Below, piece after piece: positions 8,702-56,901 of a stretch of DNA of 56,901 bases. Position 1 is the stretch's first letter. Each line of letters starts with the position of its first letter. The stretch covers positions 1 through 56,901 of the forward strand of contig JADLBB010000185.1 in NCBI GenBank assembly GCA_020848055.1, given 5' to 3'. The position numbers and the translations under genes are program-made. The DNA is from Chloroflexota bacterium (GTDB lineage: Bacteria > Chloroflexota > Limnocylindria > QHBO01). A model generated the notes under the pieces. The model did not search any database. It was not told the origin of the DNA and worked only from the letters and a program-made list of their open reading frames with translations.

Positions 8702-8844
8702 GCGCGCTCGCTGCAGTCCTCTGCCTTCTCGTGACCGCAGCGGCGCTTATGCGCGTCCGGCGACCGCGCCGCGGCGCCTATCGCTTCATCGTCGCGCTCC
8801 GTCCGCTTGTGCCGCTCCCCACCGCCCAGGACAACCGCCCATGA
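8698..8844 (+). CDS. Small single-pass membrane protein (48 aa)
   Basis: Not in the ORF track because it is under 60 aa. I translated it by hand as MSALAAVLCLLVTAAALMRVRRPRR... It has ATGA overlaps at both ends, which suggests translational coupling. Confidence 0.4.
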   Translation: MSALAAVLCLLVTAAALMRVRRPRRGAYRFIVALRPLVPLPTAQDNRP

Positions 8845-11131: not shown

Positions 11132-11140
11132 GAGCACCGC

Positions 11141-11773
11141 GTGAACGAGCCACAGCCAGCCCCACGCCTTGACCTCGAAGCCCTCGCCCGTGAGATGCGC
11201 GCCGCGTTCGATGGCCAGGCCATCGACATCGTCGACGCCCTGGGCGATCTGCGCGACGCCTGCGGGCAGACCCGCTCGATGGAGATCGTCTGCATCATCT
11301 GGGAGGCAGCGCAGCGCTCCTTCCTCGACGCCGTCGCCGACGCGATGGAGGACAGCGAACCGGATCCGGACGAGGTCTTCGCGTTCGCCGCGCAGCTTCG
11401 GCCGAAGATGCCGATCTCCCGCGACAAGGAAGGGATGATGTCGCTGGAGATCGGGTTCGTCGTCGGCTCCAGCCGCGACCGCGCCGCCGAGCGCTTCGCC
11501 GAACCGCTGCGCCTGGGCCTGTCTGGCCCGCTGTACTGCCGCGTCGTCGTCCAGCCGATCATCAATCAGCCACGCCTCCCGGTGGCGCCGCCCGCCGAGG
11601 CTGCCCCGCCGGACGCGGCGACCGACGTCGACGACCAGCTCACGCTCGACGACGCCGCGAGCGAGTCCGGGATCAGCCTCGTGGAGATCTCGGCTCCCGG
11701 CCACGATCCCGTGCGGATGACGGGACGACAGTTCGATCGCGTGGTCGAGACGATCACGGGAGGAGCGGCGTGA
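11141..11773 (+). CDS. Hypothetical protein (210 aa)
   Basis: ORF with protein-like composition. Its stop overlaps the next GTG. Confidence 0.55.
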   Translation: MNEPQPAPRLDLEALAREMRAAFDGQAIDIVDALGDLRDACGQTRSMEIVCIIWEAAQRSFLDAVADAMEDSEPDPDEVFAFAAQLRPKMPISRDKEGMMSLEIGFVVGSSRDRAAERFAEPLRLGLSGPLYCRVVVQPIINQPRLPVAPPAEAAPPDAATDVDDQLTLDDAASESGISLVEISAPGHDPVRMTGRQFDRVVETITGGAA

Positions 11774-13083
11774 ACGACCAGCCCGTCCACCTCCGCCGGC
11801 TCGACGACCTCAAGATCTGGAGCCAGAACTACAACCGCGGCGACGTGCCCGCCATACGCGCGTCGATCTCCGAATTCGGCATGAACGGCGCCCTGCGCGT
11901 GTGGGAGGACGGCATCGTCATTGCCGGCAACCACGCGCTCCTTGGCCTGCGCGCAATGCGTGACGCCGGCGAATTGCCGCCGACCCACGTCGTCCTCGAC
12001 GCCGACGGCGCCTGGCTGGTCCCGTGCATCGACGTCACCCACCTCGACCGCCGGCGCGCCGAAGCATTCGCCATCGCCGACAATCGCACCGCGGCGCTGG
12101 CGACGCAGGACGACGTCGCGCTCGCGGCGCTGCTGCGCGTCATCGCCGAGGAGGCGCCGGACGCGTTCGAGGCCACCGGCTATGACGACGGCGATCTGAA
12201 CCGCCTGCTGTCCATCCTGCACGCCGGCGAGGAATCCGACGTCGACGCCGAGCCGCGCTTCGACAAAGCCGACGAGCTGCAGGAGAAGTGGAAGGTCGAG
12301 CCCGGTCAGCTGTGGCTGCTCGGCGACCACCGGCTGCTGTGCGGCGACAGCACGAAGCCAGAGGACGTGGCGCGCGTGATGGACGGCCAGCGTGCCCGCC
12401 TGTTCGCCACCGACCCGCCGTACCTCGTGGACTACGACGGCACGAACCATCCGACAAGATGGAACGCTCCCGCCAAGGAGCGCGCCGTCAAGAATAAGGA
12501 GTGGGGCGACGACTACAAGGACTGGGATCGCAGCGACCAGGGCGACGGCCTGTACCGCGGCTTCTACGCCGCCGCCGTCGAGCACGCGATCCTCCCCGAC
12601 GCCGCGTGGTACTGCTGGCACGCTTCGCGGCGCCAGGCCATGCTCGAGGCCATCTGGACGGAGTTCGGCGCGTTCGCGCACCAGCAGATCATCTGGGCGA
12701 AGGATCGCGGCGTCCTCGGTCGCACGTGGTACCGCTTCGCCCACGAGCCGTGCTTCTTCGGCTGGGTGAAGGGCAACAAGCCGCCGCGCGTCGCCGAGGA
12801 TTACCCGACGACCGTCTGGAACTTCCCCACGTCGCGCGTGGGCGAGGACACGGGGCACCCGACGTCCAAGCCCGTCCAGCTCTTCGAGATCCCGATGCTG
12901 CAGCACGCGGCGCCCGGAGAGGTCTGCTACGAGCCGTTCAGCGGATCCGGCAGCCAGATCATCGCGGGCGAGCGCACGGGGAGGCGCGTGTACGCCATCG
13001 AGATCGCGCCGCCGTTCGTCTCCGTCGCCCTCGAGCGCTACCTCGAGGCCACGGGGGTCACGCCCACCCTGGCGGCTGCGTGA
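11770..13083 (+). CDS. ParB-like nuclease domain fused to a beta-class N6A/N4C DNA methyltransferase (orphan)
   Basis: N-terminal ParB/Srx-like region (IAGNHALLGL), the LLCGDS motif, catalytic DPPY (FATDPPY) and a C-terminal SAM motif (YEPFSGSGSQ). No cognate endonuclease is adjacent. Confidence 0.85.
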   Translation: MNDQPVHLRRLDDLKIWSQNYNRGDVPAIRASISEFGMNGALRVWEDGIVIAGNHALLGLRAMRDAGELPPTHVVLDADGAWLVPCIDVTHLDRRRAEAFAIADNRTAALATQDDVALAALLRVIAEEAPDAFEATGYDDGDLNRLLSILHAGEESDVDAEPRFDKADELQEKWKVEPGQLWLLGDHRLLCGDSTKPEDVARVMDGQRARLFATDPPYLVDYDGTNHPTRWNAPAKERAVKNKEWGDDYKDWDRSDQGDGLYRGFYAAAVEHAILPDAAWYCWHASRRQAMLEAIWTEFGAFAHQQIIWAKDRGVLGRTWYRFAHEPCFFGWVKGNKPPRVAEDYPTTVWNFPTSRVGEDTGHPTSKPVQLFEIPMLQHAAPGEVCYEPFSGSGSQIIAGERTGRRVYAIEIAPPFVSVALERYLEATGVTPTLAAA

Positions 13084-18594: not shown

Positions 18595-21381
18595 GTGATG
18601 GCTTCGAACCCCAACGGCGGTCAGCTCACGCTGGCCCAACTGCAGAGGCTCCGAGCACGGCGCGACCGCGGCGAGATCACCGCCAAGGCCTACGCGCGTG
18701 CCGTCGCCGCTGCCCAGGCCGGCCGCCTCGAGCCCGTCGCGTACGAGACCGCACCGCGCGTCGCCGTACCACAAGGCATGACGCAGGGAACGGCACGCGG
18801 CGTCACGCCTCGTTATGCCCGCGCAGACGACGCCGACCCACAGCCACTCACACGCGCCCTCCTCGCCCCCGGCCGCCAGTCCGTCGTCCTCGCCGCCAAG
18901 GGCGCCACCACCACCGACACGACCGTTCCGCGCCCGGACTACCTCAAGCCAGGCGCGCAGAAGAGCCTGCGTCGCATCGCCGACGTCAACCCGGACGCGT
19001 CACTCGCCCTGTCCCACATCCGCCGTCTGGCCATGACGGACCACCGCGTGCGCGTGCTGGCCGTCGGACCGGACGGGCCGCTGGAGGAAGAGCACGAGGA
19101 GGGGATGCGCGAGATCGCGCAGTTCCTCGCGCGGTGCTTCCGGACGTTCGAAGGCGGCGGTGTCACGGCGATGATGAGCGTCGGCCTGGACAGTGCGGCC
19201 ACCGGCGGCGCCGTCGCCGTCGAGCTCGATGTGGCGCCGAGCCGCGCCGACGTGCGCGACATCTGGATGGTGGATCCCGGCATCGTCGAGATGGAGCGCG
19301 TGCGGGAGGGCGAGACCGAAACGATCATCCCCGTCCTGACGGACGGCATGGGTGGCAAGGGTAAGCCGTTCAACCTCAACCAGTTCGCGTACATCGGCCT
19401 GGACACGAACACGAAGCAGCCGCACGGCAAGCCGTGGTTCGCGCCGGCCCTGGACACGACGCTGCCGCAGCACGAGATGCGCAACACCCTCCAGGCGGTC
19501 GTGAAGAACCAGGGGTTCGGACGGCTGGCAGCGAAGGTCAGCTGGGACCGCATCGCCGAGCTGATGCCGGACACGGTCGCCTCTGGCAACGAGGCGGCCG
19601 CGTTCATCGAGCAGGTGATGGACGGCGTGCGCCGCTCGCTGGAGCGGCTCGAGGCGGACGATACGGTCATCCATCCGGACTTCGTCGCCCTCGACTACTA
19701 CGGCGCGAACCACAGCGGTAACAGCTTCCGGCCCAAGGACCTGTCGGACATTTACGACACGGACCAGGGCGCCGCGGTGAAGACGCCGCTCGCGCTGCTC
19801 GGCCGCTCGACCGGCAACGCGCTGTCCAGCAACGCCGACATCCACTGGGTCGTGTACGCCCTGTCCGTCGAGGCGCTGCGCGACCTGGTCAACCGCGCCA
19901 TCCAGTGGGCGCTGTCGCAGGTCCTGCGGATCAAGGGAATCCCCGCCGTCGTGGTTATCGAGTGGGATCCCATCCGCAAGGAGGACCGCGTCGCCGAGGC
20001 GAACGCCAGCAAGGCGGAGCACGAGGCCGTGCTCGCCATGTGGGACCGCGGACTGATCGACGATGAGACGGCGCGCGAGCGGCTCGGCTACCCGGAGCCG
20101 CAGGGGGCGAACACTCGCCCGGCTCCAGCGGCTGCCAACGCCGCAACGCCGCCCGCTCGCGGCGATGCCGAGGACGCCGACGCCGACCCGGCCGCCCGCT
20201 TCACCGGCCTCGTGAAATGTACCAAGTGCGGCGGCACGTCGTGGCGCCGGACCACGAAGCACCGGCAGCAGTGCCTCGGCTGCGGCGCGTACCAGTCCAA
20301 GCCGCCGCAGGACAAGGGCGACGACGCGGAGCGCGCTCCGCTCGACCCGTGGGCTGGCGTCTGGCGGTTCGCCGGCACGCTCCCCGCCGCCGACACCGAC
20401 GCGTTCCTCAGCGCCTACGTCGACGCCGTCGGCGAGGCGAACCACGTCTCGCTGTGCGGCTGCCAGGCGTGCCGAGCCGAGCGCGAGCCGGTGCGCGGGC
20501 CGGCGTTCCAGCCGAAGAACACGACGCCCGTCAGCGCGGTCGAACTCGCCCAGGAGTTCACGCACATCGACGACGGTGACGTGCGCGCTGCGGTCGAGGC
20601 TTGGCGAGCGTGGGCGCGGCGAGCGGCGCCGCGGTACGTGCGGCTGCTGGACGCGGTGCTCGCCGAGGACGAGGACGACGAGGACCGCGTCGACCGCGCG
20701 CCGGCAACGAGCGCGCCGGACTACGAGTGGGACCTCGTCACGCAGCGGTTCCGCGACCAGAGCAACGGCCGGTTCGTCGGCGAGGCCGTCGTCAACAACC
20801 TTCTCGAACGGCGGATCCGGGACGTCGAGCGGGACATCGACCGGCTCACCACGCGCCTGCTCGACAACCGCATGAACCCGGCCGAGTTCGGCCGCGGCAT
20901 GGCGTCGCTCCTGCGCGACGCGCACCTCGCCGCGCGCGAGCTGGCCGTGGGCGGCGCCGAGCGGATGACGGCTCGGCACAACGGCTCGGTTGGCGGCTAC
21001 ATGCGCTACGACACGGACCACCTCGCCGGGTTCGTGAACGCGATCGCGCGCGGCGACCTGTCGCCCGAGCAGATCCGCGCGCGCGGCCGGCTGTACGCCG
21101 GCGCCAACCTGCGGCGCGAGTTCGACCGTGGGCGCGCGTGGGCGCACGAGGAAGCTGGCTACACCGAGGAGCGCCGAGTCCTGCGGCAGGGCGCCGCGCA
21201 CTGCAAGGGCTGCGCGGATGAGGCGGCGCGCAGCTGGATGGCCATCGGCACCGGCACGCCGATCGGCGGGCACGAGTGCGGGCCGAACGACATGTGCGGG
21301 CGCGAGTACCGCTTCGACAAGAACCGCCGCTACCCGCCGCGACGCATCGACGCGCCGCGCGCGGTGCCGGCCCACGCGTAG
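18595..21381 (+). CDS. Portal protein fused to a MuF/SPP1-gp7-like head morphogenesis domain (928 aa)
   Basis: The N-terminal region of about 500 aa is portal-like by position and size. A central zinc ribbon reads KCTKCGG...CLGCG. The C-terminus (MRYDTDHLAGFVNAI...RLYAGANLRREFDRGRAWAHEEAGYTEERRVL...HCKGCADEA..W..IG...PIGGHECGPNDMCGREY) matches the minor-head-protein (Phage_Mu_F) pattern. The start is GTG at 18595 or ATG at 18598. Confidence 0.7.
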   Translation: MMASNPNGGQLTLAQLQRLRARRDRGEITAKAYARAVAAAQAGRLEPVAYETAPRVAVPQGMTQGTARGVTPRYARADDADPQPLTRALLAPGRQSVVLAAKGATTTDTTVPRPDYLKPGAQKSLRRIADVNPDASLALSHIRRLAMTDHRVRVLAVGPDGPLEEEHEEGMREIAQFLARCFRTFEGGGVTAMMSVGLDSAATGGAVAVELDVAPSRADVRDIWMVDPGIVEMERVREGETETIIPVLTDGMGGKGKPFNLNQFAYIGLDTNTKQPHGKPWFAPALDTTLPQHEMRNTLQAVVKNQGFGRLAAKVSWDRIAELMPDTVASGNEAAAFIEQVMDGVRRSLERLEADDTVIHPDFVALDYYGANHSGNSFRPKDLSDIYDTDQGAAVKTPLALLGRSTGNALSSNADIHWVVYALSVEALRDLVNRAIQWALSQVLRIKGIPAVVVIEWDPIRKEDRVAEANASKAEHEAVLAMWDRGLIDDETARERLGYPEPQGANTRPAPAAANAATPPARGDAEDADADPAARFTGLVKCTKCGGTSWRRTTKHRQQCLGCGAYQSKPPQDKGDDAERAPLDPWAGVWRFAGTLPAADTDAFLSAYVDAVGEANHVSLCGCQACRAEREPVRGPAFQPKNTTPVSAVELAQEFTHIDDGDVRAAVEAWRAWARRAAPRYVRLLDAVLAEDEDDEDRVDRAPATSAPDYEWDLVTQRFRDQSNGRFVGEAVVNNLLERRIRDVERDIDRLTTRLLDNRMNPAEFGRGMASLLRDAHLAARELAVGGAERMTARHNGSVGGYMRYDTDHLAGFVNAIARGDLSPEQIRARGRLYAGANLRREFDRGRAWAHEEAGYTEERRVLRQGAAHCKGCADEAARSWMAIGTGTPIGGHECGPNDMCGREYRFDKNRRYPPRRIDAPRAVPAHA

Positions 21382-44955: not shown

Positions 44956-45695
44956 TGGGCTGCCGTCCCTACACGACGACCGTCAAGCCGGGCGACGGCT
45001 GGTACCGCATCGCATCTCGGTTCCGCATCACCGCTGCCGAGCTCACGGCCGCCAACGGCGCGACGCTGCGCACAGTCCTGCACCCGGGCATGGAGCTCGT
45101 GGTGCCCGGGCGCTGCGCCGAGGTGCCGCCGGCGGCGCCGGGTCCGATCGACACGAAGCCCTCGTTCATCTGGGTCACGTCGACCGACGACGATACCGAG
45201 GAGCGGTGGTACCTGCGAAATCGCCGCACGATCTTCATCGTCGTGCACGACCCCGTAGCCGGCTCGCCGGACGGGCTGCTCCGCTACCTGAAGCGCAACG
45301 ACCGCCAGGTCAGCTACGACGACGTGCTCGTCCCTGGCTCGCCGCCAAAGGCGCACGTGCTCGTGCCGTCGGCCGACTGGTGGGTGGGGCACGCCGGCGG
45401 CGGCACCGCGACCGACGTGCGCACCGGGATCGTGTTCGGCAAGGCCGCGGGCGGCAACCTGAACCACGTCTCGTGGGGCGTGTGCATCTACAAGCACGCT
45501 GAAGATGGCGGCCCGTTCAGCGAGCCGCTGTACACGGCGGCCGTGGCGCTCGTCGCGGCGCGTGCGCGTCAGTTCGACGTCGACCCCCAGAACATCCTCG
45601 CCCACCGTGAGGTGGACCCAACGCGGCGCTCGGATCCGCGAGGCGTGAACATCGCCCGCTTCCGTGCGCACGTGATCGAGGCGATGAACCTGTAG
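44955..45695 (+). CDS. LysM + N-acetylmuramoyl-L-alanine amidase (Amidase_2/PGRP) endolysin
   Basis: N-terminal LysM (YTTTVKPGDGWYRIASRFRITAAELTAANG...LHPGMELVVP). The amidase part contains IVVHD..., WVGHAG, and ILAHREVDPTRRSDP. Confidence 0.8.
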   Translation: MGCRPYTTTVKPGDGWYRIASRFRITAAELTAANGATLRTVLHPGMELVVPGRCAEVPPAAPGPIDTKPSFIWVTSTDDDTEERWYLRNRRTIFIVVHDPVAGSPDGLLRYLKRNDRQVSYDDVLVPGSPPKAHVLVPSADWWVGHAGGGTATDVRTGIVFGKAAGGNLNHVSWGVCIYKHAEDGGPFSEPLYTAAVALVAARARQFDVDPQNILAHREVDPTRRSDPRGVNIARFRAHVIEAMNL

Positions 45696-45783: not shown

Positions 45784-46314
45784 ATGCACCTCTCCATCCG
45801 CCCGCGCCGCTTCTGGCGCCCGCTCCTGGCTCTGGCCTTCGTGGTCGGGGTCGCCTTCGTCCTCCGTTCCACGGCCCACGCCGCGGCGCTGCTGCAGGCG
45901 GTCGAACCCGACCCCGGCCTCGTGGAGGTGACCGACCTCGTGAGTTCGCTCATGAAGGTCGTCGCCGTCGCCCTCTCGATCGTCGGGATCACCGGCGGCA
46001 TCAAGGGGCTCGTCGGGGGGATCCCGGATCTGAACGTCGGGAAGAACCCGGACGGCTCGCCGCGGTTCGTCCTGAAGGGTGGGCTGATCCTGTCGTGGGT
46101 CGTCGGGTTCCCGGTGACGCTCGTCGCCCTCTCGCAGGGCTGGGGACCGGACCTGTCCTCGTACCCGTCGGGTGAGGCGGCGATCGCGGGTCTCTGGGCG
46201 TTCTACTCGTCCGTTTCGAACATCGTCCGCAACGCGATCGTCGGTGCCGGCGGCGGCGGGACGGACACCGTGATCCGCGAGCTCGCACGGCGCGGGCTGC
46301 TGTCGCGGGCGTAG
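45784..46314 (+). CDS. Polytopic membrane protein (holin candidate)
   Basis: GAGGAGG upstream. Three to four TM helices. It is the last gene of the lysis block and a hairpin follows it. Confidence 0.5.
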   Translation: MHLSIRPRRFWRPLLALAFVVGVAFVLRSTAHAAALLQAVEPDPGLVEVTDLVSSLMKVVAVALSIVGITGGIKGLVGGIPDLNVGKNPDGSPRFVLKGGLILSWVVGFPVTLVALSQGWGPDLSSYPSGEAAIAGLWAFYSSVSNIVRNAIVGAGGGGTDTVIRELARRGLLSRA

Positions 46315-46357: not shown

Positions 46358-46395
46358 GCGAGCCCTCACCCCCAACATCGGAGGTGGGGGCTCGC
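46358..46395 (+). terminator. Hairpin terminator ending the late/lysis operon
   Basis: 13-bp stem gcgagccctcacc/ggtgggggctcgc (one G:U pair) with a 12-nt loop. Confidence 0.5.
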
Positions 46396-46493
46396 TCTAT
46401 CACGGGGCCTCAAACAAGGGGCCTTGACCAGGCCGCCTGCATGGCCGTAATCTTCGCGCCTCGCCTGACCAGTTGCCTCCCGGAGCAAAATTA

Positions 46494-48452
46494 GTGAACG
46501 ACCCCATCGCGACCTCCTGGGCACACAAGCCCTCTCTCGGGCAGCTGACATTGCCAACCTATTCTGAACGATTCCTTGAGTCCTATGCCGGCAAGATTGT
46601 CACGTCACCGCTCGTGGCCCTGGTGGAATTGGTTGCCAATTCCTGGGATGCGGGCGCCGTTCTTGTTGACCTGACCTGGCCAGATGAAGGTCAGTCGACA
46701 TTTCGACTTTCCGACAATGGTGTCGGTATGAAACATGATGATGTGTGGGGCCGATGGCTCAATCTAAGCTACAACCGACAGAAGGCACAAGGCGAGAATG
46801 TCGTCTTTCCTCCAACAACGGAGCGCACGCATCGGAAAGCATTTGGGCGGAACGGCAAGGGAAGACTCGCGCTATTCGCGTACTGTGACCAATACGTTTT
46901 GACGACTTGGCGTGATGGTCTATTCAATTCGTATCGGGTTGCCCTCACCTCTGGCGGAACGGTGCCCTATAGCGTCGATCACATTGAGACTGGTGACAGA
47001 GACGGATCTGGCACAATGTTCGAAGGGACTCTTGTGAGAAACCATCTGTCACCTACGATGATGGCCCGCGAACTTGCGATGAGATTCATCATCGATCCAA
47101 AGTTTATGATTCAGGTAAACGGACGCAAGATTGACGCTGGCGACCAAGGCATTCCTACTACCGCGCATCCTTTTACGTCTGGTCCTTTCGACTTCGAGAT
47201 AAAGCTCTACGCCGGCTCCAAAAGCGGCCGCCTAAGTGGGTATCACGGGGTAGCATGGTGGGTGAACAGTCGACTGGTCGGCACGCCGTCTTGGAATCGC
47301 CTTGCAAAGGGTCGTCCATACTTGGACGCGCGCACGACATTCGCGAAGCGGCACACAATTATTGTGGAGGCAGACGGACTTGCCAATCATGTTCTCGACG
47401 ACTGGTCTGGATTTGACGAAGACGAAGTTACAACGAAGGCAATCGACGACGTAGAGGGATACGTTGCCGCGATCTGCCAATCGCTGGTAGCCGACCTTCA
47501 TCGCGAACAGAAGACGGATGTCCTTCGCGCCAATGCGGTCGAAATGCGCGCTCTCCCTCCAGGTTCGCGCCACGCAGTAGGCGAGCTGATTTCTGAAATG
47601 CAACGAAGGGTTCCCACGATCGACGAGGATGTCCTAAGTGCAACGGTGGCCGCTGCCTCCAACATCCTGAACGCGAGGTCCGGTCACGCACTACTCCGGC
47701 AACTGGCCGATCTGTCGCTTGATGATCTAGATGGACTGCATCGCCTTCTGGCGAACTGGACGGTTCAGGAAATCCGCATCATTGTTGACGAACTGCAGCG
47801 GCGACTGGATCTCGTCAAGAAGCTAGAAGAGGTGACCTCTCGATCCAGCGACGAACTCCACGAGGTCCAACCACTATTTGACACAGGATTGTGGATCTTT
47901 GGCCCTGAGTACGATGGCATTTCATTCATGTCCAATCGCGCCCTGGCCACTGTGATCAAGAAGTACTTCGCAAAGCAGATAGATGTAAGCCTCATTGAGG
48001 ATCCGGCATCGAGGCCAGACATTGTGGTCACGAGCGACATGTCACTTCGCGTGTTTGCGCGGGATCATTACGACGACACGTTTAATGTTAGCGGGTTTGA
48101 AACAGTGCTTCTACTTGAATTGAAGCGTGGAGGACATACAGTGAATGACAACAACGTGTTCCAGGCGATGAAGTACGCGGCCGAATTGCGTCGAACGAAT
48201 GCTGTACAAGCAGACACGAAAATCGTTTGCATGATATTGGGCAGCAAGATTGCTTGGGGCGTGGGTGAAATGCGGAAGCCGGAGCAGAACATCAGATGTC
48301 TTCCGCGCGACTTTCAGACGGTCCTTCGTCAGGCGCACGCACGGACGTTCAATATTCTTCGACAAATTGAGGACGCCAATGGAGGCGCTATTTACGACAG
48401 CGAAGTCGAGGCCGCGATCATGCAGGCTCCAATTCCCTTCGAAGAGATATAG
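46494..48452 (+). CDS. GHKL (Bergerat-fold, MORC/HATPase_c_3-like) ATPase fused to a C-terminal PD-(D/E)xK nuclease of Shedu/DUF4263 type
   Basis: N box ELVANSWDAGA, G1 box SDNGVGM, G2-like GRNGKGRLA, and GSGTMFEG. The C-terminus carries LFDTGLWIFGPEY, RPDIVV (Asp), LLLELKRG (Glu-x-Lys) and QAMKY (QxxxY). GC is much lower than the phage backbone. GGAG lies 8 nt upstream of the GTG at 46494 (an alternative TTG lies at 46473). Confidence 0.7.
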   Translation: MNDPIATSWAHKPSLGQLTLPTYSERFLESYAGKIVTSPLVALVELVANSWDAGAVLVDLTWPDEGQSTFRLSDNGVGMKHDDVWGRWLNLSYNRQKAQGENVVFPPTTERTHRKAFGRNGKGRLALFAYCDQYVLTTWRDGLFNSYRVALTSGGTVPYSVDHIETGDRDGSGTMFEGTLVRNHLSPTMMARELAMRFIIDPKFMIQVNGRKIDAGDQGIPTTAHPFTSGPFDFEIKLYAGSKSGRLSGYHGVAWWVNSRLVGTPSWNRLAKGRPYLDARTTFAKRHTIIVEADGLANHVLDDWSGFDEDEVTTKAIDDVEGYVAAICQSLVADLHREQKTDVLRANAVEMRALPPGSRHAVGELISEMQRRVPTIDEDVLSATVAAASNILNARSGHALLRQLADLSLDDLDGLHRLLANWTVQEIRIIVDELQRRLDLVKKLEEVTSRSSDELHEVQPLFDTGLWIFGPEYDGISFMSNRALATVIKKYFAKQIDVSLIEDPASRPDIVVTSDMSLRVFARDHYDDTFNVSGFETVLLLELKRGGHTVNDNNVFQAMKYAAELRRTNAVQADTKIVCMILGSKIAWGVGEMRKPEQNIRCLPRDFQTVLRQAHARTFNILRQIEDANGGAIYDSEVEAAIMQAPIPFEEI

Positions 48453-48535: not shown

Positions 48536-48790
48536 ATGCGCTCGTACGACCCGCCCCTCCCCATCCGCGCCCGCGTCGCAGTCGACGGCGCGCCCCACTC
48601 GTTCGTCCTGGACGGCGTGACCTACGTCGTCGAGACGATCGAGGAGGTCCGCGCGCCGTGCCTCGACTGGTGGACGGCGACGCCGGCGCACCGGACGTAC
48701 TACCTCGTCACGACGAACCGCGGGATGGTCGCCGAGCTCGTGCGGGACGAGGTGGCGGGGACGTGGGGGGTGGCGCGACGGTTGGATTGA
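48536..48790 (+). CDS. Small protein (84 aa), DUF6504-like by recollection
   Basis: ORF with high GC, unlike its neighbours. PHSFVLDGVTYVVETIEE....WW.......YYLVTTNRGMVAELVRDEVAGTWGVARRLD. No SD, and the -10-like TACTAT lies 10 nt upstream of the ATG, so the mRNA may be leaderless. Confidence 0.5.
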   Translation: MRSYDPPLPIRARVAVDGAPHSFVLDGVTYVVETIEEVRAPCLDWWTATPAHRTYYLVTTNRGMVAELVRDEVAGTWGVARRLD

Positions 48791-49080: not shown

Positions 49081-50268
49081 CTAAGGCTCACCGCTAGGTC
49101 CGTCTGTGGCCCCGTGGTCAGCTCCATCTGCACCTCGGCCTCCTCCCGCGATCAGCTGATCTGTCGATCGCCAACAGGCGCTCTTCTGGACACTCGTGAC
49201 GCGCAGCTCGGATGAGGGGAGTCGCTGCGCGTTGATCACTCCGCGCATCTCGAACCGACTCGCCCAACGGGCGCTCTCCATCAAGGCGAGCACGAGAGTG
49301 TAGTCAACCGGCGGCACCATGACAACTTCCAGTTTCTGAAGCACGTTCTGCAGAACCTGCTGTTGGACCTCAGGCGGCAATCCGGCCGGGATGTTCACCT
49401 GAGGAGCCGGGCCGAACAGCGCTGCTGCCGCTCCGGATGACGCCAGTTCTGAGGTCGGGTTGAACGGTTCGCGCGTATTTAGCTCGGCTTCGATGTCCTG
49501 CCACACTGCGGAAATCAGCCCCTCAAGGTCAGGCTCCGGCCTAATCACCTTCAACCCCATCTGTTCGGCCTCGGTTCGGCTCAAAGGGTACCCGTGTGCC
49601 TGGAATGTCTTGTTGAGCGCCTCCGCTATGTTGCGAGCCTGCTGAGCTTCAGCGTCGGACGCCATGTGCATACGGAGTAGCTTCTCTCCCATGCTGAGAG
49701 ATAGCTGCGTGCTGCGCGCCGCAACACCGATAGGGACGGCACCAACCTCTGAGCAGAGGAGCTCGAACACTCGTACAAGCTGGCCCTGATCAGTCAGGCC
49801 AACTGTGTTACGCGCAAAGTCGAGGAACGCGGCAGCATCTTCTGAACCGAACGCAGTCTGGGTGGCTGGCCCCTCGTCGCCTGACCGGCGTACAGAGGTT
49901 ATCTGGGGATCGATCGGCCCCAGGTTCCCGTAACGGTGCATGACAATCTCGTCTGCCCCGAGCGCGATGAGCGTGGCTGCACTGAAAGCCGCTTGAGGAA
50001 CCAGAACCGCGAAATGGTCCACCCTCTCGCGAATGTGGGACACCATGCGCCATGCCACAAGCGGATCGCCGCCGTTGCTCGCCAGTAGCAGGTCGAGGCA
50101 TGTTGCATCGGCCGGCAGTGCATCCAGCTGGCGGAGGAGCTCGCCGATCGCATCTGAGCTGATCTTGGCAGTTGCACCGGGCCGCGTGCCTGTGACGTAC
50201 GCGACCAATGGCCTTCCACGTATCTGCTCAATGTTGGAGTACAAGGCCATACGGCGTTCGATTCCCAT
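49081..50268 (-). CDS. SDH-family ClpP/crotonase-fold serine protease (S49/SppA-like)
   Basis: LDLLLASNGGDPLVAWRMVSHIRERVDHFAVLVPQAAFSAATLIALGADEIVMHRYGNLGPIDPQ matches the serine dehydrogenase proteinase family pattern. GGAGGG lies 10 nt upstream of the ATG at 50268 (the ORF extends to 50322). Confidence 0.7.
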   Translation of the reverse strand: MGIERRMALYSNIEQIRGRPLVAYVTGTRPGATAKISSDAIGELLRQLDALPADATCLDLLLASNGGDPLVAWRMVSHIRERVDHFAVLVPQAAFSAATLIALGADEIVMHRYGNLGPIDPQITSVRRSGDEGPATQTAFGSEDAAAFLDFARNTVGLTDQGQLVRVFELLCSEVGAVPIGVAARSTQLSLSMGEKLLRMHMASDAEAQQARNIAEALNKTFQAHGYPLSRTEAEQMGLKVIRPEPDLEGLISAVWQDIEAELNTREPFNPTSELASSGAAAALFGPAPQVNIPAGLPPEVQQQVLQNVLQKLEVVMVPPVDYTLVLALMESARWASRFEMRGVINAQRLPSSELRVTSVQKSACWRSTDQLIAGGGRGADGADHGATDGPSGEP

Positions 50269-50487
50269 GGTGTTGTTACCCTCCGCGAGGTTCTGCGGTG
50301 CATCGACAAGTGCGAATAGCATGATGCGCCACCATGCGATTCAAATCCAACGGCAGCGGAACCTGGCAGCGCAGCGACTGGAGGGTCCTGAGAAACGCTC
50401 CCGTAGTACGCTCTCCGATCCCAGCCGCCTTGCCCCCAGCCTCCGCCCCAGGTATAACCCCGCGCCACCCTGGAGGCCCGCCCCCAC

Positions 50488-53304
50488 ATGACCCCCCAAC
50501 AATTCGTCGCCACCTGGAAGAACGTCACCCAGACCGAGCGCGCCACGTCGCAGACGCACTTCAACCATCTCTGCCAGCTGCTCGGCGTCGACGACCCGGT
50601 CACCGGTGACCCGACCGGCCAGACGTACGCATTCGAGCCGGGCGTCCGCAAGTCGAGCGGTGGCCAGGGATGGGCGGACGTCTGGAAGCGTGGGCACTTC
50701 GGGTGGGAGTACAAGGGGCCAGGGCGCGACCTCGAGGCGGCGTACCGCCAGCTGCTCAACTACAAGGACGCCCTCGAGAACCCGCCGCTGCTGATCGTCA
50801 GCGACATCCAGACGATCATCGTCCGCTCCAACTTCACGAACAGCGTCCAGCGCACTCGCGTGTTCACCGTCGAGGGGATGCTGGACCCGGCCGAACGCGA
50901 CGCGCTGCGTGCCATCTGGACAAACCCCGAGGCGTTCAGGAGCCGACGGACCACCGAGGCCGTCACACGGGAGGCGGCGACGCAGTTCGCCAAACTCGCC
51001 GACCATCTGCGCGCCAAGGATGTGGCGCCGGACGCGGCCGCCCACTACCTGATCCGGCTGCTGTTCTGCCTCTTCGCCGAAGACATCGGGCTGCTGCCGA
51101 AGAGCCTGTTCACGACGCTGGTGCACAGCGGTCATCGCCAGCCGGAGCGCTTCAACAACCAGCTCCGCACACTCTTCGCGGCGATGAGCACCGGTGGCTA
51201 CTTCGGCGCCGATGACATCCTCCACATCAACGGCCGGCTGTTCGACAGTGCTGCCGTGATCGACCTGGACAGCGACGCCCTGTGGATCCTGAAGGGGGTC
51301 TGCGACCTGGACTGGTCGGCGATCGAACCCGCGATCCTCGGCACGCTGTTCACGCGCTCGCTTGACCCGGCGATGCGCGCCCAGCTCGGCGCGCAGTACA
51401 CGAGCCGTGACGACATCCTGCTCGTCGTCGAGCCGGTGCTCATGGCGCCGCTGCGTCGTCGATGGGCGGAGGTGAAGGCGCAGGCCGAGGCGATCGCGGC
51501 CGAGCGCGACACTGCGCCGGCGGGGAGCGCGCGGACGAAGAAGGATAACCAGCTGCGCGCCGTCCTCGTCGCCTTCGCGCAGGAGCTCGCCCGCATCCGC
51601 GTCCTCGACCCCGCCTGCGGCAGCGGCAACTTCCTCTACGTCGCCCTCCTGTTGCTGCTCGACCTCTGGAAGGAGGTCTCGACCGCCGCTGCGGACTTCG
51701 GGCTGTCACTGCTCATGCCGACCGATGACCAAGCTCCGTCGCCAGCGCAGCTGCACGGCATCGAGATCAACGAGTACGCCCACGAGCTGGCGCAGGTGAC
51801 GATCTGGATCGGCTACATCCAGTGGATGCGCGACAACGGGTTCGGGCGGCCGGGCGAGCCGGTGCTCAAGCCGATCGACACGATCGAGCATCGGGACGCA
51901 ATCCTGGCGTTCGACGCGGAGGGGAGGCCGGTTGAGCCGGAGTGGCCGGCGGTGGATGTGGTCGTCGGGAATCCGCCCTTCCTGGGCACGAAGCTGATGC
52001 GTGCAGGTCTCGGTGATGCCATTGTCGATCGCCTCTTCGAACTGTACGACGGCAAGGTGGCGCGGGAGTCCGACCTCGTCGTCTATTGGTTCCACCGTGC
52101 TCAGCAACTCGTGGCCAGCGGCCGACTCAAGCGCGTGGGTCTGCTTGCCACGAACTCCATCCGAGGAGGCGCGAATCGTCGCGTCATCGAGGACATCAAG
52201 CGAAGTGGCGACATCTTCATGGCATGGAGTGACCGCCCTTGGATTCTGGACGGCGCCGCCGTAAGGGTGTCAATGGTCGGGTTCGACGACGGCTCGGAGC
52301 ACGACCGCAACCTCGACGGCATGTCCGTCTCCGAGATCCACTCCGACTTGACGAGCGGCGGCGCAGATCTGACTCAGGCAGTACGGCTGGTCGAGAACGT
52401 CGGGCTCGCGTTCATGGGCGACACGAAGGGCGGCGCGTTCGACGTCAATGATGTGACTGCGACGGCGATGCTGGCCGCCAAGGGCAACCCAAATGGTCGA
52501 CCAAACAGCGACGTCGTGCGGCCCTGGGTGAACGGCATGGACCTGACGCGTCGACCGCGGGGGATGTGGATCATCGACTTCGGCATCGATTCCACGCAGG
52601 ACTCTGCATCGGGCTACGAGCGGCCGTTCGAACACGTCGTGTCACACGTGAAGAAAGACCGTGACCGCAATCGTCGCGACGCCTATCGCCTGCGCTGGTG
52701 GCTTCACATGGAGCCTCGTCCAGCGATGCGCCAGGCTCTGGCATTACTACCGCGCTTCATCTGCACGCCTCGGGTGTCAAGCCATCGGGTGTTTGTCTGG
52801 CTGTCCCCACCGACACTCCCAGACAGCGCCACAATAGCCATCGCGCGCGACGATGACTACTTCCTTGGCGTCCTCCACTCCCGCGCCCACGAGCTGTGGT
52901 CGCTCCGCATGGGCACGTGGCTGGGCGTCGGCAATGATCCGCGCTACACGCCGACGACCACGTTCGAGTCGTTCCCCTTCCCCTGGCCCCCCGGCCACGA
53001 GCCGGCCGACGACCACCGCGTCCTCACAATCGCCACCGCCGCCCGCGAGCTCGTCGAGCAGCGCGACCGCTGGCTCAACCCCGATGAAGCCACCGAGGCT
53101 GAGCTGAAGAAGCGGACGCTCACCAACCTGTACAACCAGCGGCCGACGTGGCTTGACCTCGCACACCGGAGGCTAAATGAGGCGGTGCTGGACGCGTTCG
53201 GGTGGCCTCGGGACTTAGGGGACGAGGAGCTGCTGGAGCAACTCTTGGCGCTGAATCTTGATCGGGCGAGTCGATCTGCAGCGACGGACAGGGTCACCAA
53301 GTGA
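50488..53304 (+). CDS. MmeI-family type IIL (IIG) restriction-modification enzyme: N-terminal D-X9-E-X-K nuclease, gamma-class N6A methyltransferase and TRD
   Basis: GWADVWKRGHFGWEYKG gives D64-X9-E74-X-K76. Motif I is VLDPACGSGNFL and motif IV is VVGNPPF. The 938-aa size and domain order match the MmeI family. GGAGG upstream. Confidence 0.75.
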   Translation: MTPQQFVATWKNVTQTERATSQTHFNHLCQLLGVDDPVTGDPTGQTYAFEPGVRKSSGGQGWADVWKRGHFGWEYKGPGRDLEAAYRQLLNYKDALENPPLLIVSDIQTIIVRSNFTNSVQRTRVFTVEGMLDPAERDALRAIWTNPEAFRSRRTTEAVTREAATQFAKLADHLRAKDVAPDAAAHYLIRLLFCLFAEDIGLLPKSLFTTLVHSGHRQPERFNNQLRTLFAAMSTGGYFGADDILHINGRLFDSAAVIDLDSDALWILKGVCDLDWSAIEPAILGTLFTRSLDPAMRAQLGAQYTSRDDILLVVEPVLMAPLRRRWAEVKAQAEAIAAERDTAPAGSARTKKDNQLRAVLVAFAQELARIRVLDPACGSGNFLYVALLLLLDLWKEVSTAAADFGLSLLMPTDDQAPSPAQLHGIEINEYAHELAQVTIWIGYIQWMRDNGFGRPGEPVLKPIDTIEHRDAILAFDAEGRPVEPEWPAVDVVVGNPPFLGTKLMRAGLGDAIVDRLFELYDGKVARESDLVVYWFHRAQQLVASGRLKRVGLLATNSIRGGANRRVIEDIKRSGDIFMAWSDRPWILDGAAVRVSMVGFDDGSEHDRNLDGMSVSEIHSDLTSGGADLTQAVRLVENVGLAFMGDTKGGAFDVNDVTATAMLAAKGNPNGRPNSDVVRPWVNGMDLTRRPRGMWIIDFGIDSTQDSASGYERPFEHVVSHVKKDRDRNRRDAYRLRWWLHMEPRPAMRQALALLPRFICTPRVSSHRVFVWLSPPTLPDSATIAIARDDDYFLGVLHSRAHELWSLRMGTWLGVGNDPRYTPTTTFESFPFPWPPGHEPADDHRVLTIATAARELVEQRDRWLNPDEATEAELKKRTLTNLYNQRPTWLDLAHRRLNEAVLDAFGWPRDLGDEELLEQLLALNLDRASRSAATDRVTK

Positions 53305-55720: not shown

Positions 55721-56773
55721 ATGAACGCGCCGTCGCCTGACTCCACCGTCGCCGCCTACCTCGACTGGTGGGCCTCCACGCACGTCGCGCGCCTGCGCAC
55801 GAACACCCGCGAGAACTACCTGAAGGGCGTCGAACTCTACCGGCCGGAGCTGGGCAGCGTCCTCATGCGTGACCTCGGGCCGCAGCACCTGCAGCGGATT
55901 GTCGACGCCCAGGTCGAGGAAGCGCACTACTGCCCGAACACGATCCGGTTGTTCTTCGGCGTGATCCGCTCCGCCCTGCGCCGCGCGGCCGTCGAACACC
56001 GCCTGCTGGAGTACAACCCCGCACCGATGGTCCGGCTGCCATCACGCAACCCGGTCCGGTCCAAGGCCTTCGGCCGCGACGACGCCGTGGCGTTCATCAA
56101 CGAGGCCCTCGCTCCCGACGGCACGGGCGGGCGCCACTACCACGGCGTCATGCTGACGACGGCCATCAAGACCGGCATGCGCTTCGGCGAGCTGCGCGGC
56201 CTGCGGATCGACAACCTCGAGCTGCGCGACGCGCCGACCGGCAGCCTTGGAGGGATCGTCCGGATCTGTGAGCAGATCGCGTCCAACGTCTCGCGGGCCG
56301 AGTGGAGCGAGCCCAAGACCGTGGCCAGCCACCGCGAGATCCCGGTCTCGCCCGACCTCGCCGGCATCCTGCGGCGCCACCTCGAGCGGCTGGCCATCCA
56401 GCGGCGACGGGTCGGGACTCGGAAGTGGCAGGACAACCAGCTGGTGTTCCCGGCGCTCCGCGGCGGCCTGGTCATGAGCAAGGACCTGGCTTGGGCCAGA
56501 CGCACGATCGCCCTCTCGGCCGGCCTCTCACGGATCCCCACGATGCACTGTCTGCGTCATACCTATGCCACCCAATTGGCTAATGGACGCATCCGCCCTG
56601 AGGCTTTGCAGGAGGTCGTCGGGCACGCCGACATTCGGACCACGATGAACGTCTACTACGACGCGACCGAGGAGACGCTCGAAGAGGTCGCGGCCGCCGT
56701 GGCGGATTGGTCGCGTGAGGGGCTTGACAACAGACCACGCGCCGGATACAATGGACTTCGCCCGAACGGATGA
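55721..56773 (+). CDS. int: Tyrosine integrase
   Basis: N-terminal SAM-like core-binding domain. Catalytic residues are present in order: R (TGMRFGELRGL), K, HCLRH (H-x-x-R), GHADIRTT (H) and NVYYD (Y). Confidence 0.9.
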   Translation: MNAPSPDSTVAAYLDWWASTHVARLRTNTRENYLKGVELYRPELGSVLMRDLGPQHLQRIVDAQVEEAHYCPNTIRLFFGVIRSALRRAAVEHRLLEYNPAPMVRLPSRNPVRSKAFGRDDAVAFINEALAPDGTGGRHYHGVMLTTAIKTGMRFGELRGLRIDNLELRDAPTGSLGGIVRICEQIASNVSRAEWSEPKTVASHREIPVSPDLAGILRRHLERLAIQRRRVGTRKWQDNQLVFPALRGGLVMSKDLAWARRTIALSAGLSRIPTMHCLRHTYATQLANGRIRPEALQEVVGHADIRTTMNVYYDATEETLEEVAAAVADWSREGLDNRPRAGYNGLRPNG

Positions 56774-56774
56774 T

Positions 56775-56901
56775 CTACACGGGCGTTCGGTCGGAGATAA
56801 CAATTACATATCAGGATCAGTACGCATTTGGGTCCTTGAAACTTAGCAGGAACGTGCGTGCAATGATCTTGAAATCGAGGAGCAACGACCAATTTTCAAT
56901 A
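56775..56901. repeat. Terminal identity, copy 2 (identical to 1-127)
   Basis: Same 127-mer as 1-127. It lies immediately downstream of the int stop codon (56773). Confidence 0.95.

Follow-up and report, generated by a model that had tools for sequence, protein, structure and literature searches.

A divergent relative of paraMORC3 and Shedu type I-D, a predicted ATP-dependent nuclease, encoded by a temperate phage

A single gene in a phage genome from a Chloroflexota-binned assembly encodes a 652-aa protein that joins a predicted GHKL (Bergerat-fold) ATPase to a predicted PD-(D/E)xK nuclease. Judging from its sequence, structural models and analogy with characterised relatives, it is probably a standalone ATP-dependent nuclease of the paraMORC3 / Shedu I-D type, acquired recently by the phage through horizontal transfer and most likely guarding the lysogen against superinfecting phages or invading DNA. 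The first-pass annotation had not recognised this combination of a GHKL ATPase and a nuclease as a characterised architecture, a claim of novelty that does not hold. A single chain with GHKL, S5 and restriction-fold nuclease domains was reported in 2008 under the name paraMORC3 (PMC2292703), Shedu type I-D followed in 2023–25, and VcSduA was validated in 2025. Because the architecture is already known, the gene is a divergent member of this group and not a new kind of system.

The gene and its phage context

The window, meaning the whole 56,901-nt stretch of DNA that was analysed (contig JADLBB010000185.1), is the whole genome of a temperate phage, closed into a circle. It carries genes for TerL, portal, major capsid protein, tape measure, endolysin, integrase and repressor, so that the gene does sit in a phage, as had been proposed. 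Between the lysis genes and the integrase lies the GHKL-nuclease gene, an insert whose GC content of 53.8% is low (vs 68.4% for the phage genome), as is its GC3 of 58% (vs ~90%). The same phage genome encodes an MmeI-like type IIG restriction-modification (R-M) enzyme (50488-53304). The features of the gene and the region upstream of it are:

45784-46314, holin-like gene, upstream of the stem-loop
46358..46395, + strand, strong stem-loop between the holin-like gene and the GHKL-nuclease gene
46482..46485, + strand, Shine-Dalgarno sequence GGAG, 8 nt before GTG 46494, read from the sequence
46494..48452, + strand, coding sequence of the GHKL ATPase-nuclease fusion, 652 aa plus stop

In the ORF list, the gene is a real open reading frame from GTG 46494 to 48452 (+), and an in-frame TTG at 46473 would give an alternative product of 659 aa. 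The coordinates 46494-48452 given earlier are right, because the GTG is preceded by the GGAG Shine-Dalgarno sequence and the NCBI-annotated protein is the 652-aa GTG product (100% identity). The residue numbers that accompanied them hold only in the 659-aa frame and are 7 too high for the 652-aa protein. Residues are numbered here in the 659-aa frame, from which 7 must be subtracted for the 652-aa protein.

The stem-loop has a predicted folding energy of -32 kcal/mol (z = -5.96), and none of 200 shuffled sequences was as stable. It is likely a terminator that insulates the GHKL-nuclease gene from the late/lysis operon. A promoter scan found no plus-strand sigma-70-like promoter upstream of the gene, a result that is uninformative for a Chloroflexota-type host; expression of the gene in the lysogen is therefore an assumption.

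Domain organisation

The protein can be divided into four regions, the last of which contains six candidate catalytic residues:

46560..47042, + strand, GHKL (Bergerat-fold) ATPase domain, residues ~30-190, motifs I-IV
47052..47417, + strand, transducer (S5-like "middle") domain, residues ~194-315, from Foldseek spans, conservation and hhalign pairing
47424..47855, + strand, all-helical linker, residues ~318-461, with helices across 318-456 in the AF2 model
47856..48392, + strand, PD-(D/E)xK nuclease domain, residues ~462-640, from conservation, the AF2 alpha/beta core and hhalign
47907-47909, + strand, E479, candidate catalytic residue
48018-48020, + strand, D516, candidate catalytic residue
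48117-48119, + strand, E549, candidate catalytic residue
48123-48125, + strand, K551, candidate catalytic residue
48162-48164, + strand, Q564, candidate catalytic residue
48174-48176, + strand, Y568, candidate catalytic residue

From sequence and model together, the N-terminal ~315 residues are assigned to a GHKL ATPase followed by an S5-like transducer, and ATPase activity is predicted. The complete Bergerat-fold motif set noted at first reading is present: motif I (E52-x3-N56-x2-D59-A60), motif II (D81-N-G83-V-G85-M86), motif III (G125-R-N127-G128-K-G130-R131) and motif IV (G180-T181). In an alignment of 42 full-length homologues with 36-45% identity, E52, N56, D59, D81, G83, G85, N127, G128, G130, R131 and G180 are invariant, while T181 is kept in at least 90% of the sequences. 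Residues 46-157 match Pfam HATPase_c_3 (PF13589) with an E-value of 1.1e-13 and 51.8 bits (cut-off 25). The sequence matches of the N-terminus were to MutL/PMS2, with the GHKL motifs of the two aligned; in a profile search GRP94/Hsp90 ranked first and MutL was also matched. The full-length AF2 model (pLDDT 80.6) was matched by Foldseek to the N and middle domains of Hsp90/TRAP1, to the ATPase modules of MORC2/3/4 and to MutL, with E-values of 3e-11 to 5e-9 over 350-430 columns. Both the Pfam and the Foldseek matches thus agree with the GHKL fold that had been proposed.

The transducer is marked by the family signature HGVAWWVNxRLVGxPSW and has an invariant D285-x-R287, of which R287 may be the gamma-phosphate sensor. 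In hhalign, this region pairs with the middle region of paraMORC3, whose helical region in turn runs collinear with the linker. The protein had been called MORC-like, a description that applies to the GHKL + S5 module only, because by hhalign the protein groups with paraMORC3. Iyer, Abhiman & Aravind separated the paraMORCs, which lack the MORC-specific motif, from the MORCs proper (PMC2292703). MORC, MutL and Hsp90 share with the window protein the Bergerat fold, the middle domain and the Glu/Asn/Asp/Gly motifs. The window protein lacks the CW and coiled-coil domains of MORC, the C-terminal endonuclease domain of MutL and the C-terminal dimerisation domain of Hsp90, and its predicted nuclease stands where these proteins have their C-terminal domains.

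The C-terminus is a predicted PD-(D/E)xK nuclease. Its motifs are L473-W474-I-F476-G-P478-E479-Y480, R514-P515-D516, E549-L-K551 and Q564-x3-Y568, and the order LWIFGPEY, PD, ExK and QxxxY, likened to that of Shedu in the first-pass annotation, is conserved across homologues. W474, F476, R514, P515, D516, E549, K551 and Y568 are invariant in the 42-sequence alignment, and E479 and Q564 are kept in at least 90% of the sequences. Which residue serves as the catalytic Asp is uncertain, because D516 and the ExK motif are 33 residues apart (vs 14 in paraMORC3 and Shedu) and hhalign leaves D516 unaligned with the Asp of either. The 19-residue longer segment between this candidate Asp and ExK was modelled as a beta-hairpin.

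Since the full-length Foldseek search was swamped by GHKL matches and silent on the C-terminus, the C-terminus was modelled separately for its own fold search, which gave an alpha/beta core with a pLDDT of 78. The best PDB matches of this model were the PD-(D/E)xK nuclease NucS/EndoMS (2vld, 5gkj and 5gke), all weak, with E-values of 3e-3 to 2e-2 and a TM-score of ~0.2. No PDB match fell below E 1e-3, and the SduA structure 8ps4, a comparison suggested at first reading, was outside the top 50. Among the BFVD viral structures nothing fell below E 1e-3, scattered Mrr and PD-(D/E)xK names appearing among the noise, and the C-terminal profile gave only a chance match to PDB sequences (Niban 2, E 0.64). 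NucS itself is a repair enzyme that has no ATPase and binds DNA through an N-terminal domain of a different kind. Gu et al. likewise took EndoMS as the reference structure for the nuclease of Shedu (bioRxiv 10.1101/2023.08.10.552793), and EndoMS/NucS is the nearest structural relative of canonical Shedu and the closest, if weak, match of the window C-terminus.

Relation to paraMORC3 and Shedu

The homology of the window protein and its closest homologues (the window clade) to paraMORC3 extends over the full length. An hhalign comparison of the clade with 26 paraMORC3 / BbrUII/HgiDII proteins gave a probability of 99.6% and an E-value of 2.9e-24 over 542 collinear columns (residues 38-642). The C-termini alone were paired at E 9.5e-6 with the catalytic motifs in register, namely GLWIFGPEYE with HLWLLDPSWE, ELKRGG with EMKRP, and QAxxYA with QGxKY. 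Three intermediate sequences (L098-L100) align by BLASTP to both the window clade and paraMORC3 through the nuclease core. The window protein has in one chain the GHKL, S5 and restriction-fold nuclease domains with E-D-ExK by which paraMORC3 is recognised, and shares with it the helical linker and the QxxxY motif as well. A P2-like coliphage has already been annotated as carrying ParaMORC3, and the ParaMORC3 of Escherichia phage PhiR44_1 (XSB42653.1) has the same length as the window protein (652 aa), both being on temperate phages. Profile identity between the window clade and paraMORC3 is nevertheless only ~20%, and single-sequence BLASTP sees the GHKL part alone. A Dcm-type methyltransferase gene lies next to that of the PhiR44_1 protein, and a Dcm-like gene next to L099 and L100, two of the three intermediates, whereas in the window clade such a neighbour is almost never seen.

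The relation to Shedu is less direct. The window protein has no match to PF14082 (SduA_C / DUF4263; gathering threshold 27 bits) and no significant match to the PADLOC SduA models; sub-threshold PF14082 matches occur in 6 of 27 clade homologues (best E 0.0053). Against a canonical Shedu profile, the clade C-terminus gave an hhalign E-value of 0.048 (probability 1%, 48 columns), which is not significant, with ExK and QAxKY in register. Of 19 paraMORC3 C-termini, in contrast, 18 match Pfam SduA_C (best 5e-7); by hhalign the paraMORC3 C-terminus matches canonical Shedu at E 3.1e-6, and the merged profile matches Shedu at E 4e-6 to 8e-8. Against the PDB, the paraMORC3 C-terminal profile reached Shedu 8ps4 very weakly (E 0.83), and this match was used only as the source of a Shedu fragment for collecting real Shedu genes. 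As the direct link between the clade and Shedu is not significant, the relation rests on the paraMORC3 intermediate; the original assignment of the C-terminus to a Shedu-type (DUF4263) nuclease is upheld only transitively (E 9.5e-6, then 3e-6). Canonical SduA shares the motif order hydrophobic-(F/G)P-x-Y, R-x-D-hydrophobic, E-x-K and Q-A-x-K/x-Y, and both proteins are single-gene with the nuclease core under an N-terminal domain, which in the window protein would be regulatory. The N-terminal domain of canonical SduA is different, and the window protein has a fused ATPase in its place. SduA is reported to form a tetramer; its N-terminal domains need no ATP to sense DNA ends or to inhibit the nuclease, and anti-phage activity has also been shown for the SduA of B. 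cereus and E. coli.

Gu et al. listed fusions of GHKL (HATPase_c_3) and Shedu as type 1D (bioRxiv 10.1101/2023.08.10.552793). One such protein, VcSduA of the Vibrio cholerae WASA lineage (VSP-II; Shedu type I-D), defends against phages as a single gene, and its E27A (ATPase) and K557A (nuclease) mutants are both inactive (PMC12137116). In its model there is a clamp-like cavity resembling those with which other GHKL enzymes bind DNA or protein, and proteins of this type were formerly annotated as paraMORC3 (PMC12137116). VcSduA and the window protein are both encoded by a single gene and have N-terminal GHKL motifs I-IV, a clamp-like middle, a C-terminal PD-(D/E)xK domain and ~650 aa; this likeness is drawn from the published description of VcSduA, and the family link from the paraMORC3 annotation of such proteins. 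VcSduA was described with a recognisable DUF4263 domain, which by PF14082 is not seen in the window protein, and it is chromosomal, on a genomic island, whereas the window copy is phage-borne, its host being of high GC and Chloroflexota-binned. One V. cholerae protein among the sequences collected (P0315) was considered as a candidate for VcSduA itself and rejected, its Glu-to-Lys spacing being 518 vs 530 for E27/K557.

The widespread clade is at present labelled only "ATP-binding protein", and its nuclease half is missed by the Pfam SduA_C, NCBIfam NF050001, PADLOC SduA and REase_II models. As the profiles used here tie the clade to paraMORC3 / Shedu I-D, censuses of defence systems would undercount the type, especially in archaea, Chloroflexota and cyanobacteria. 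It is unlikely that the clade is a functionally distinct family of ATP-gated nucleases and not simply a divergent Shedu I-D; in that case it would merit its own entry in defence-system catalogues. The longer Asp-ExK segment, the transducer signature and the failure of existing models to detect the nuclease half might nevertheless point to a trigger or substrate different from those of VcSduA and the methylation-linked HgiDII-type enzymes.

Distribution and probable role

More than 347 homologues were found in the first sequence search. The C-terminal profile alone retrieved 728 cluster representatives at 50% identity (E ≤ 1e-3), the best 150 of which were all from the window clade, and the clade comprises at least 241 cluster representatives at the same identity. 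Together with the Pfam match of the N-terminus, these numbers put the observation well outside what chance could produce. The hosts of the clade include Chloroflexota, cyanobacteria, methanogenic archaea, alphaproteobacteria and Clostridia as well as several phages. The 75 genomic loci inspected occur sporadically among bacteria and archaea, and even the commonest neighbour family is present at six of them at most; like Shedu, the clade is thus single-gene, with no obligate partner. Recurrent neighbours include R-M genes, SNF2 helicases, integrases and AAA_21 ATPases. Twelve full-length relatives were found on otherwise unrelated IMG/VR viral contigs, several adjoining integrases. The first-pass annotation had named housekeeping contexts of homologues as evidence against its reading; the homologues lie in defence islands, mobile elements and prophages, and not in conserved housekeeping operons.

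Three neighbours in the window, an SDH-type ClpP-like protease, a small DUF6504-like ORF and the MmeI-like enzyme, were considered as partners and rejected, since none recurs beside homologues; the only recurrence is one distant MmeI-like match at a single locus (L017). The GC content of these neighbours also differs from that of the GHKL-nuclease gene. An SNF2 helicase lies directly upstream in three Anaerolineae relatives, but it was rejected as an obligate partner, being found within the 6-kb flank in 6 of ~87 clade loci and not at all in the window.

By analogy with VcSduA, MORC, MutL and Hsp90, the protein would dimerise through its ATP-bound GHKL domains, and its middle domains would form a clamp that captures DNA. 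A cycle of ATP binding and hydrolysis could then license the C-terminal nuclease (E479, D516, E549 and K551) to cut the trapped foreign DNA; ideas on what the protein would sense, and on how the DNA of its own cell would be spared, are drawn from the same comparison. The mechanistic questions are those already raised by VcSduA, namely the signal to which the GHKL clamp responds and the way in which ATP controls the nuclease.

R.HgiDII and R.BbrUII, type II enzymes with a GHKL N-terminus, cleave GTCGAC and have an m5C methyltransferase as their partner. The window protein could in the same manner be the restriction endonuclease of an R-M system, cutting unmodified DNA at specific sites while a methyltransferase encoded elsewhere protects the DNA of phage and lysogen, a reading that we consider quite improbable. 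It draws on the full-length homology to the BbrUII/HgiDII family, in which R.HgiDII was noted in 2008 as a type II restriction enzyme with a GHKL N-terminus (PMC2441816). The best NCBIfam match is NF050001 "BbrUII/HgiDII family restriction enzyme" (E 2.9e-26) and the best PADLOC match is REase_II PDLC03419. The former scores 92.2 bits against a curated cut-off of 550 and covers profile positions 25-209 of 659, and both are confined to the GHKL part, whereas true paraMORC3 members match PDLC03419 along most or all of their length. The phage does encode two methyltransferase activities that could be protective, a ParB-N6/N4 methyltransferase (11770-13083) and the MmeI-like enzyme, but neither is adjacent; the nearer, the MmeI-like enzyme, is a self-contained type IIG enzyme 2 kb off, beyond two intervening genes of different GC. 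A Dcm-like gene adjoins the coliphage paraMORC3 and the intermediates L099 and L100, and N6_N4 methylases are neighbours in 5-6 of the 75 loci. The C5-methyltransferase linkage of HgiDII and BbrUII is nevertheless absent from the window, occurring within 6 kb in only 1 of ~87 clade loci (L091), and, as noted, no neighbour family is conserved. Since some paraMORC3 members have no linked methyltransferase (PMC2292703), this linkage is a mark of the R-M subtype only, and VcSduA is sufficient as a single gene (PMC12137116).

It is more doubtful still that the GHKL module is an Hsp90-like protein sensor instead of a DNA clamp, in which case binding of a phage or misfolded protein would release the nuclease, with architecture and defence role unchanged. 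Gu et al. raised this possibility for the N-terminal domains of GHKL-Shedu proteins (bioRxiv 10.1101/2023.08.10.552793), and Hsp90/TRAP1/GRP94 come slightly ahead of MORC and MutL among the full-length Foldseek matches, as GRP94/Hsp90 does in the profile search. Hsp90 (3e-11) and MORC (2e-10) hardly differ in E-value, however, and the sequence matches are to MutL/PMS2 and HATPase_c_3, a MutL/MORC-type family. The related R.HgiDII and R.BbrUII act on DNA, and the clamp-like cavity in the VcSduA model (PMC12137116) fits a clamp as well, though none of these points decides firmly between a clamp and a protein sensor.

Least probable is a nuclease serving the lytic cycle of the phage itself (host-DNA degradation, MutL-like recombination or repair, or plasmid competition): the gene is phage-encoded, directly follows the lysis genes on the same strand and combines GHKL and nuclease as MutL does, but a strong hairpin lies between it and the late operon, it differs from the phage in GC and codon usage, related phages lack it, the 12 homologue-bearing viral contigs share almost no other gene with this phage, most homologues lie in cellular genomes beside R-M systems, toxin-antitoxin modules, integrases and conjugation genes, and the protein has no MutL C-terminal endonuclease/dimerisation domain. 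As a probable guard of the lysogen, the gene would be a further example of a temperate-phage defence moron beside lysis and integration modules.

A GHKL ATPase–nuclease gene in a temperate phage genome

The window opens and closes with the same 127 nt (1-127 and 56775-56901), the mark of an assembly that is circularly closed or terminally redundant; it is therefore a complete temperate phage genome of ~56.8 kb, not a prophage flanked by host DNA. It encodes a large terminase, portal, major head protein, 1,995-aa tape measure, endolysin, integrase and repressor-like gene, bearing out the first-pass annotation, which had placed the fusion gene in a phage.

Features of the phage genome
258-665, + strand: LexA-DBD protein, possible repressor
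958-1030, + strand: tRNA-Met
11770-13083, + strand: ParB_N-like domain fused to N6/N4 DNA methyltransferase (phrog_498, E 1e-92)
18595-21381, + strand: unusually long portal ORF, 928 aa (portal match at residues 122-508)
44958-45695: endolysin (LysM and Amidase_2 domain matches)
45784-46314: holin-like ORF, 176 aa, a Pfam orphan
46358-46395, + strand: hairpin (-32 kcal/mol, z = -5.96) between the holin-like and GHKL-nuclease genes
46473-48452, + strand: GHKL-nuclease ORF as listed (TTG start, 659 aa)
46482-46485, + strand: GGAG, read from the sequence, 8 nt 5′ of the in-frame GTG at 46494
48536-48790, + strand: 84-aa ORF, native in codon usage (GC3 95%), whose DUF6504 match is weak and sub-threshold (E 9e-4)
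49081-50322, - strand: SDH-type ClpP-like serine protease, 413 aa (PF01972, E 1.5e-16), extended at length beyond its C-terminal end of the domain match
50488-53304, + strand: MmeI-like type IIG restriction-modification (R-M) enzyme, 938 aa (PADLOC REase_MTase_IIG, E 2e-274)
55721-56773: tyrosine integrase

The coordinates first proposed for the fusion gene, 46494-48452, remain the best gene model, since the GGAG precedes the GTG by 8 nt and the NCBI protein annotated on this same contig of a Chloroflexota MAG, labelled "ATP-binding protein" and 100% identical to the window protein, is also 652 aa long. Residue numbers in the first-pass annotation follow the 659-aa frame, unlike its coordinates; that numbering is kept here.

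The GHKL-nuclease is a standalone gene that was acquired horizontally by the temperate phage. Its GC content is 53.8% (GC3 58.5%), against 68.4% for the genome and a GC3 of ~90% for structural genes. Its location and hydrophobicity are the grounds for reading the 176-aa ORF as a holin, and the hairpin, which has only a weak U tract, is likely the late-operon terminator. The protease gene has an atypical, intermediate composition (GC 61%, GC3 68%). The GHKL-nuclease and the protease are low-GC inserts separated by the 84-aa ORF, whose codon usage is native, and this suggests two independent acquisitions. The MmeI-like enzyme, encoded 2 kb downstream of the GHKL-nuclease gene and carrying MmeI_N, helicase-spacer, MTase and TRD domains, is a second defence gene of the same accessory region, and an older one, as its GC3 of 85% is near-native. 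Neither the 84-aa ORF, the protease nor the MmeI-like enzyme is recurrent beside GHKL-nuclease homologues, save for one distant MmeI-like match in L017. On the circular map, the LexA-DBD gene and the nearby tRNA-Met both lie just downstream of the integrase. The portal ORF carries an extra C-terminal domain matching phrog_24776, of unknown function.

Domains of the fusion protein

The window protein was aligned with 41 full-length homologues (36-45% identity), and all the motifs named from the sequence alone proved to be present and either invariant or at least 90% conserved. In the GHKL half, E52, N56, D59, D81, G83, G85, N127, G128, G130, R131 and G180 are invariant, as are W474, F476, R514, P515, D516, E549, K551 and Y568 in the C-terminal half; T181, E479 and Q564 are kept in at least 90% of the 42 sequences. 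One chain carries an intact GHKL ATPase, a transducer and a PD-(D/E)xK nuclease, and this architecture and its family placement are very probably correct.

Residues 46-157 match Pfam HATPase_c_3 (E 1.1e-13; 51.8 bits, cut-off 25), MutL and PMS2 are matched over motifs I-II in NCBIfam and PDB sequence searches, and the family profile reaches GRP94/Hsp90 over ~190 residues. An AlphaFold2 full-length model built from the 42-sequence alignment (mean pLDDT 80.6) was compared with the PDB using Foldseek, and 350-430 columns aligned to the N and M domains of Hsp90/TRAP1 (E ~3e-11), the ATPase modules of MORC2/3/4 (~2e-10) and MutL (3e-9 to 5e-9). Residues ~30-315 are therefore a GHKL ATPase with its S5-like transducer domain, in line with the GHKL fold proposed for the N-terminus.

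[quoted passage not shown] Among 27 clade C-terminal fragments (the clade being the window protein's own branch of homologues), the family most often matched was PF14082 (SduA_C; six fragments, all sub-threshold, best E 0.0053), followed by the PD-(D/E)xK family HSDR_N_2. A separate AlphaFold2 model of residues 455-659 (pLDDT 78) has an alpha/beta core, in which a long beta-hairpin ends at E549xK551 and the next helix carries Q564...Y568. Its best PDB matches are NucS/EndoMS (2vld, 5gkj, 5gke; E 3e-3 to 2e-2, probability 0.80-0.95); none has E < 1e-3, and E. coli SduA (8ps4) is absent from the top 50. EndoMS is also the structural reference for the Shedu nuclease in Gu et al. (bioRxiv 10.1101/2023.08.10.552793). 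The proposed PD-(D/E)xK nuclease is thus well supported, as motifs and fold class agree.

Relationship to paraMORC3 and Shedu

In a tblastn search of phage genomes, the P2-like phage PhiR44_1 of Escherichia proved to encode a 652-aa "ParaMORC3" adjoining a Dcm gene; the family of this protein is the NCBI "BbrUII/HgiDII family restriction enzyme" (NF050001). With hhalign, the 42-sequence alignment matched 26 members of this family at 99.6% (E 2.9e-24) over 542 collinear columns, spanning window residues 38-642, that is, the GHKL domain, middle domain, helical linker and nuclease. The C-termini alone gave 82.7% (E 9.5e-6) and paired GLWIFGPEYE with HLWLLDPSWE, ELKRGG with EMKRP, and QAxxYA with QGxKY. 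Three IMG/VR proteins (L098:5890-7947, L099:5947-7983 and L100:5896-7950) are BLASTP intermediates, with 21-22% identity to the window protein and clade (22% over residues 33-595) and 24-26% to paraMORC3. Only 23-45 bp separate the GHKL-nuclease genes of L099 and L100 from a Dcm-like C5-methyltransferase, so these two look like R-M-type members.

PF14082 is matched by 18 of 19 paraMORC3 C-termini (best E 5e-7), which also match a canonical Shedu profile at 88% (E 3.1e-6); this profile comprised 90 nuclease domains, drawn from plasmid genes labelled "Shedu immune nuclease family" and from homologues of these. The clade alone does not match it significantly (E 0.048), with ExK and QAxKY in register, and the merged clade-paraMORC3 profile does (E 4e-6 to 8e-8). 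From these profile comparisons, the window protein is a full-length homologue of paraMORC3, which in turn bears a Shedu-type nuclease, with the clade as the more divergent branch. The original Shedu-type label is accordingly supported transitively, through paraMORC3; the direct tests (PF14082, 8ps4 and the Shedu profile) fail to establish it.

The invariant R514-P515-D516 resembles an R-x-D-hydrophobic element that reads GARIDIA in paraMORC3 and RHIDIG in Shedu. The interval between D516 and ExK is 33 residues; in paraMORC3 and Shedu the Asp lies 14 residues from ExK, and hhalign places it near D531. We favour D516 as the probable catalytic Asp, since of the two only D516 is invariant. The longer Asp-ExK segment, together with an invariant transducer motif, might reflect a trigger or substrate peculiar to the clade, which we consider unlikely.

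The first-pass annotation took the architecture to be possibly uncharacterised; it is already known. ParaMORC3 was defined as GHKL, S5 and a conserved C-terminal restriction-fold nuclease (E-D-ExK), laterally mobile and found in some cases within R-M operons and in others standalone (Iyer, Abhiman and Aravind, 2008; PMC2292703). The type II enzyme R.HgiDII has a GHKL N-terminal domain (Orlowski and Bujnicki, 2008; PMC2441816), and Shedu type 1D includes homologues with a HATPase_c_3 GHKL fold and an Hsp90/MORC-like middle domain (Gu et al., bioRxiv 10.1101/2023.08.10.552793). VcSduA, a single GHKL and DUF4263 protein predicted to dimerise with a clamp-like middle domain, shields E. coli and V. 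cholerae from phages at all MOIs, and protection is lost in both E27A (ATPase) and K557A (nuclease) mutants (Adams et al., 2025; PMC12137116). Thus neither this type of system nor its architecture nor its carriage by phages is new, and the window protein is homologous to a family with validated restriction and defence enzymes. The clade itself is a divergent, so far unannotated branch, since curated models fail to capture it: the window protein scores 92 bits for NF050001 (cut-off 550), the PADLOC REase_II match is confined to the GHKL part, and the PADLOC SduA and Pfam SduA_C models find nothing significant in the clade.

Distribution and probable function

The first search returned >347 homologous proteins, and the C-terminal profile 728 representatives (50% identity) at E <= 1e-3, 241 of them at E <= 1e-30. 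The clade occurs in 75 GTDB species genomes, from Anaerolineae, cyanobacteria, alphaproteobacteria, Clostridia, Bacteroidales, Verrucomicrobiota and Deinococcus to methanogenic and other archaea. When all ORFs within 3.5 kb were clustered, no neighbouring family was present in more than six of the 75 loci. Recurrent neighbours include N6_N4 methylases with ResIII (type III R-M), MmeI-like enzymes, SNF2 helicases, integrases, a ParB_N protein and an AAA_21 ABC ATPase; single loci have a HigB/HigA-like pair, an FtsK/ParM/DnaB mobile element or a type I R-M system. The homologue loci yielded no housekeeping contexts, which would have spoken against the original proposal. Three of the closer relatives (40-44% identity), all in Anaerolineae genomes, are preceded at 39-218 bp by a same-strand gene for an SNF2-family helicase (L017:2789-5962, L019:2768-5920, L064:2973-5783). 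L017 also has an MmeI/Eco57I-like methyltransferase-nuclease 54 bp downstream (7962-12221), and these three genes may form an operon like the helicase-MORC-methylase ones reported in 2008.

A defence role for the gene is likely, and slightly more so is the fuller reading of a paraMORC3 / Shedu type I-D ATP-dependent nuclease that protects the lysogen. An HgiDII-like restriction enzyme dependent on a methyltransferase elsewhere in the phage is improbable: a Dcm-type methyltransferase directly adjoins the coliphage paraMORC3 gene and two of the three intermediates, and lies within 6 kb at only one of ~87 clade loci. The ParB_N-N6/N4 methylase of this phage is an orphan that could shield it from host or self-encoded nucleases.

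For the protective nuclease, ATP-bound GHKL domains would dimerise, as in MutL, MORC, Hsp90 and modelled VcSduA, the middle domains would shape a DNA-capturing cavity, and the ATPase cycle would license the nuclease to cut foreign DNA, by which the lysogen would exclude other phages. Such DNA-clamp gating is possible, at a little under even chances. Foldseek scores for Hsp90 and MORC are practically equal, and "MORC-like" is a fair label for the whole ATPase-transducer module; a trigger of the Hsp90 kind, which would sense proteins instead of clamping DNA, seems marginally less credible even than the HgiDII-like enzyme. A nuclease working for the phage's own cycle is very unlikely, with 12 full-length relatives on IMG/VR viral contigs having essentially no other gene in common with this phage. 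Genes found beside these relatives include those for integrases (5-7 matches), terminases, portals and capsid proteins.
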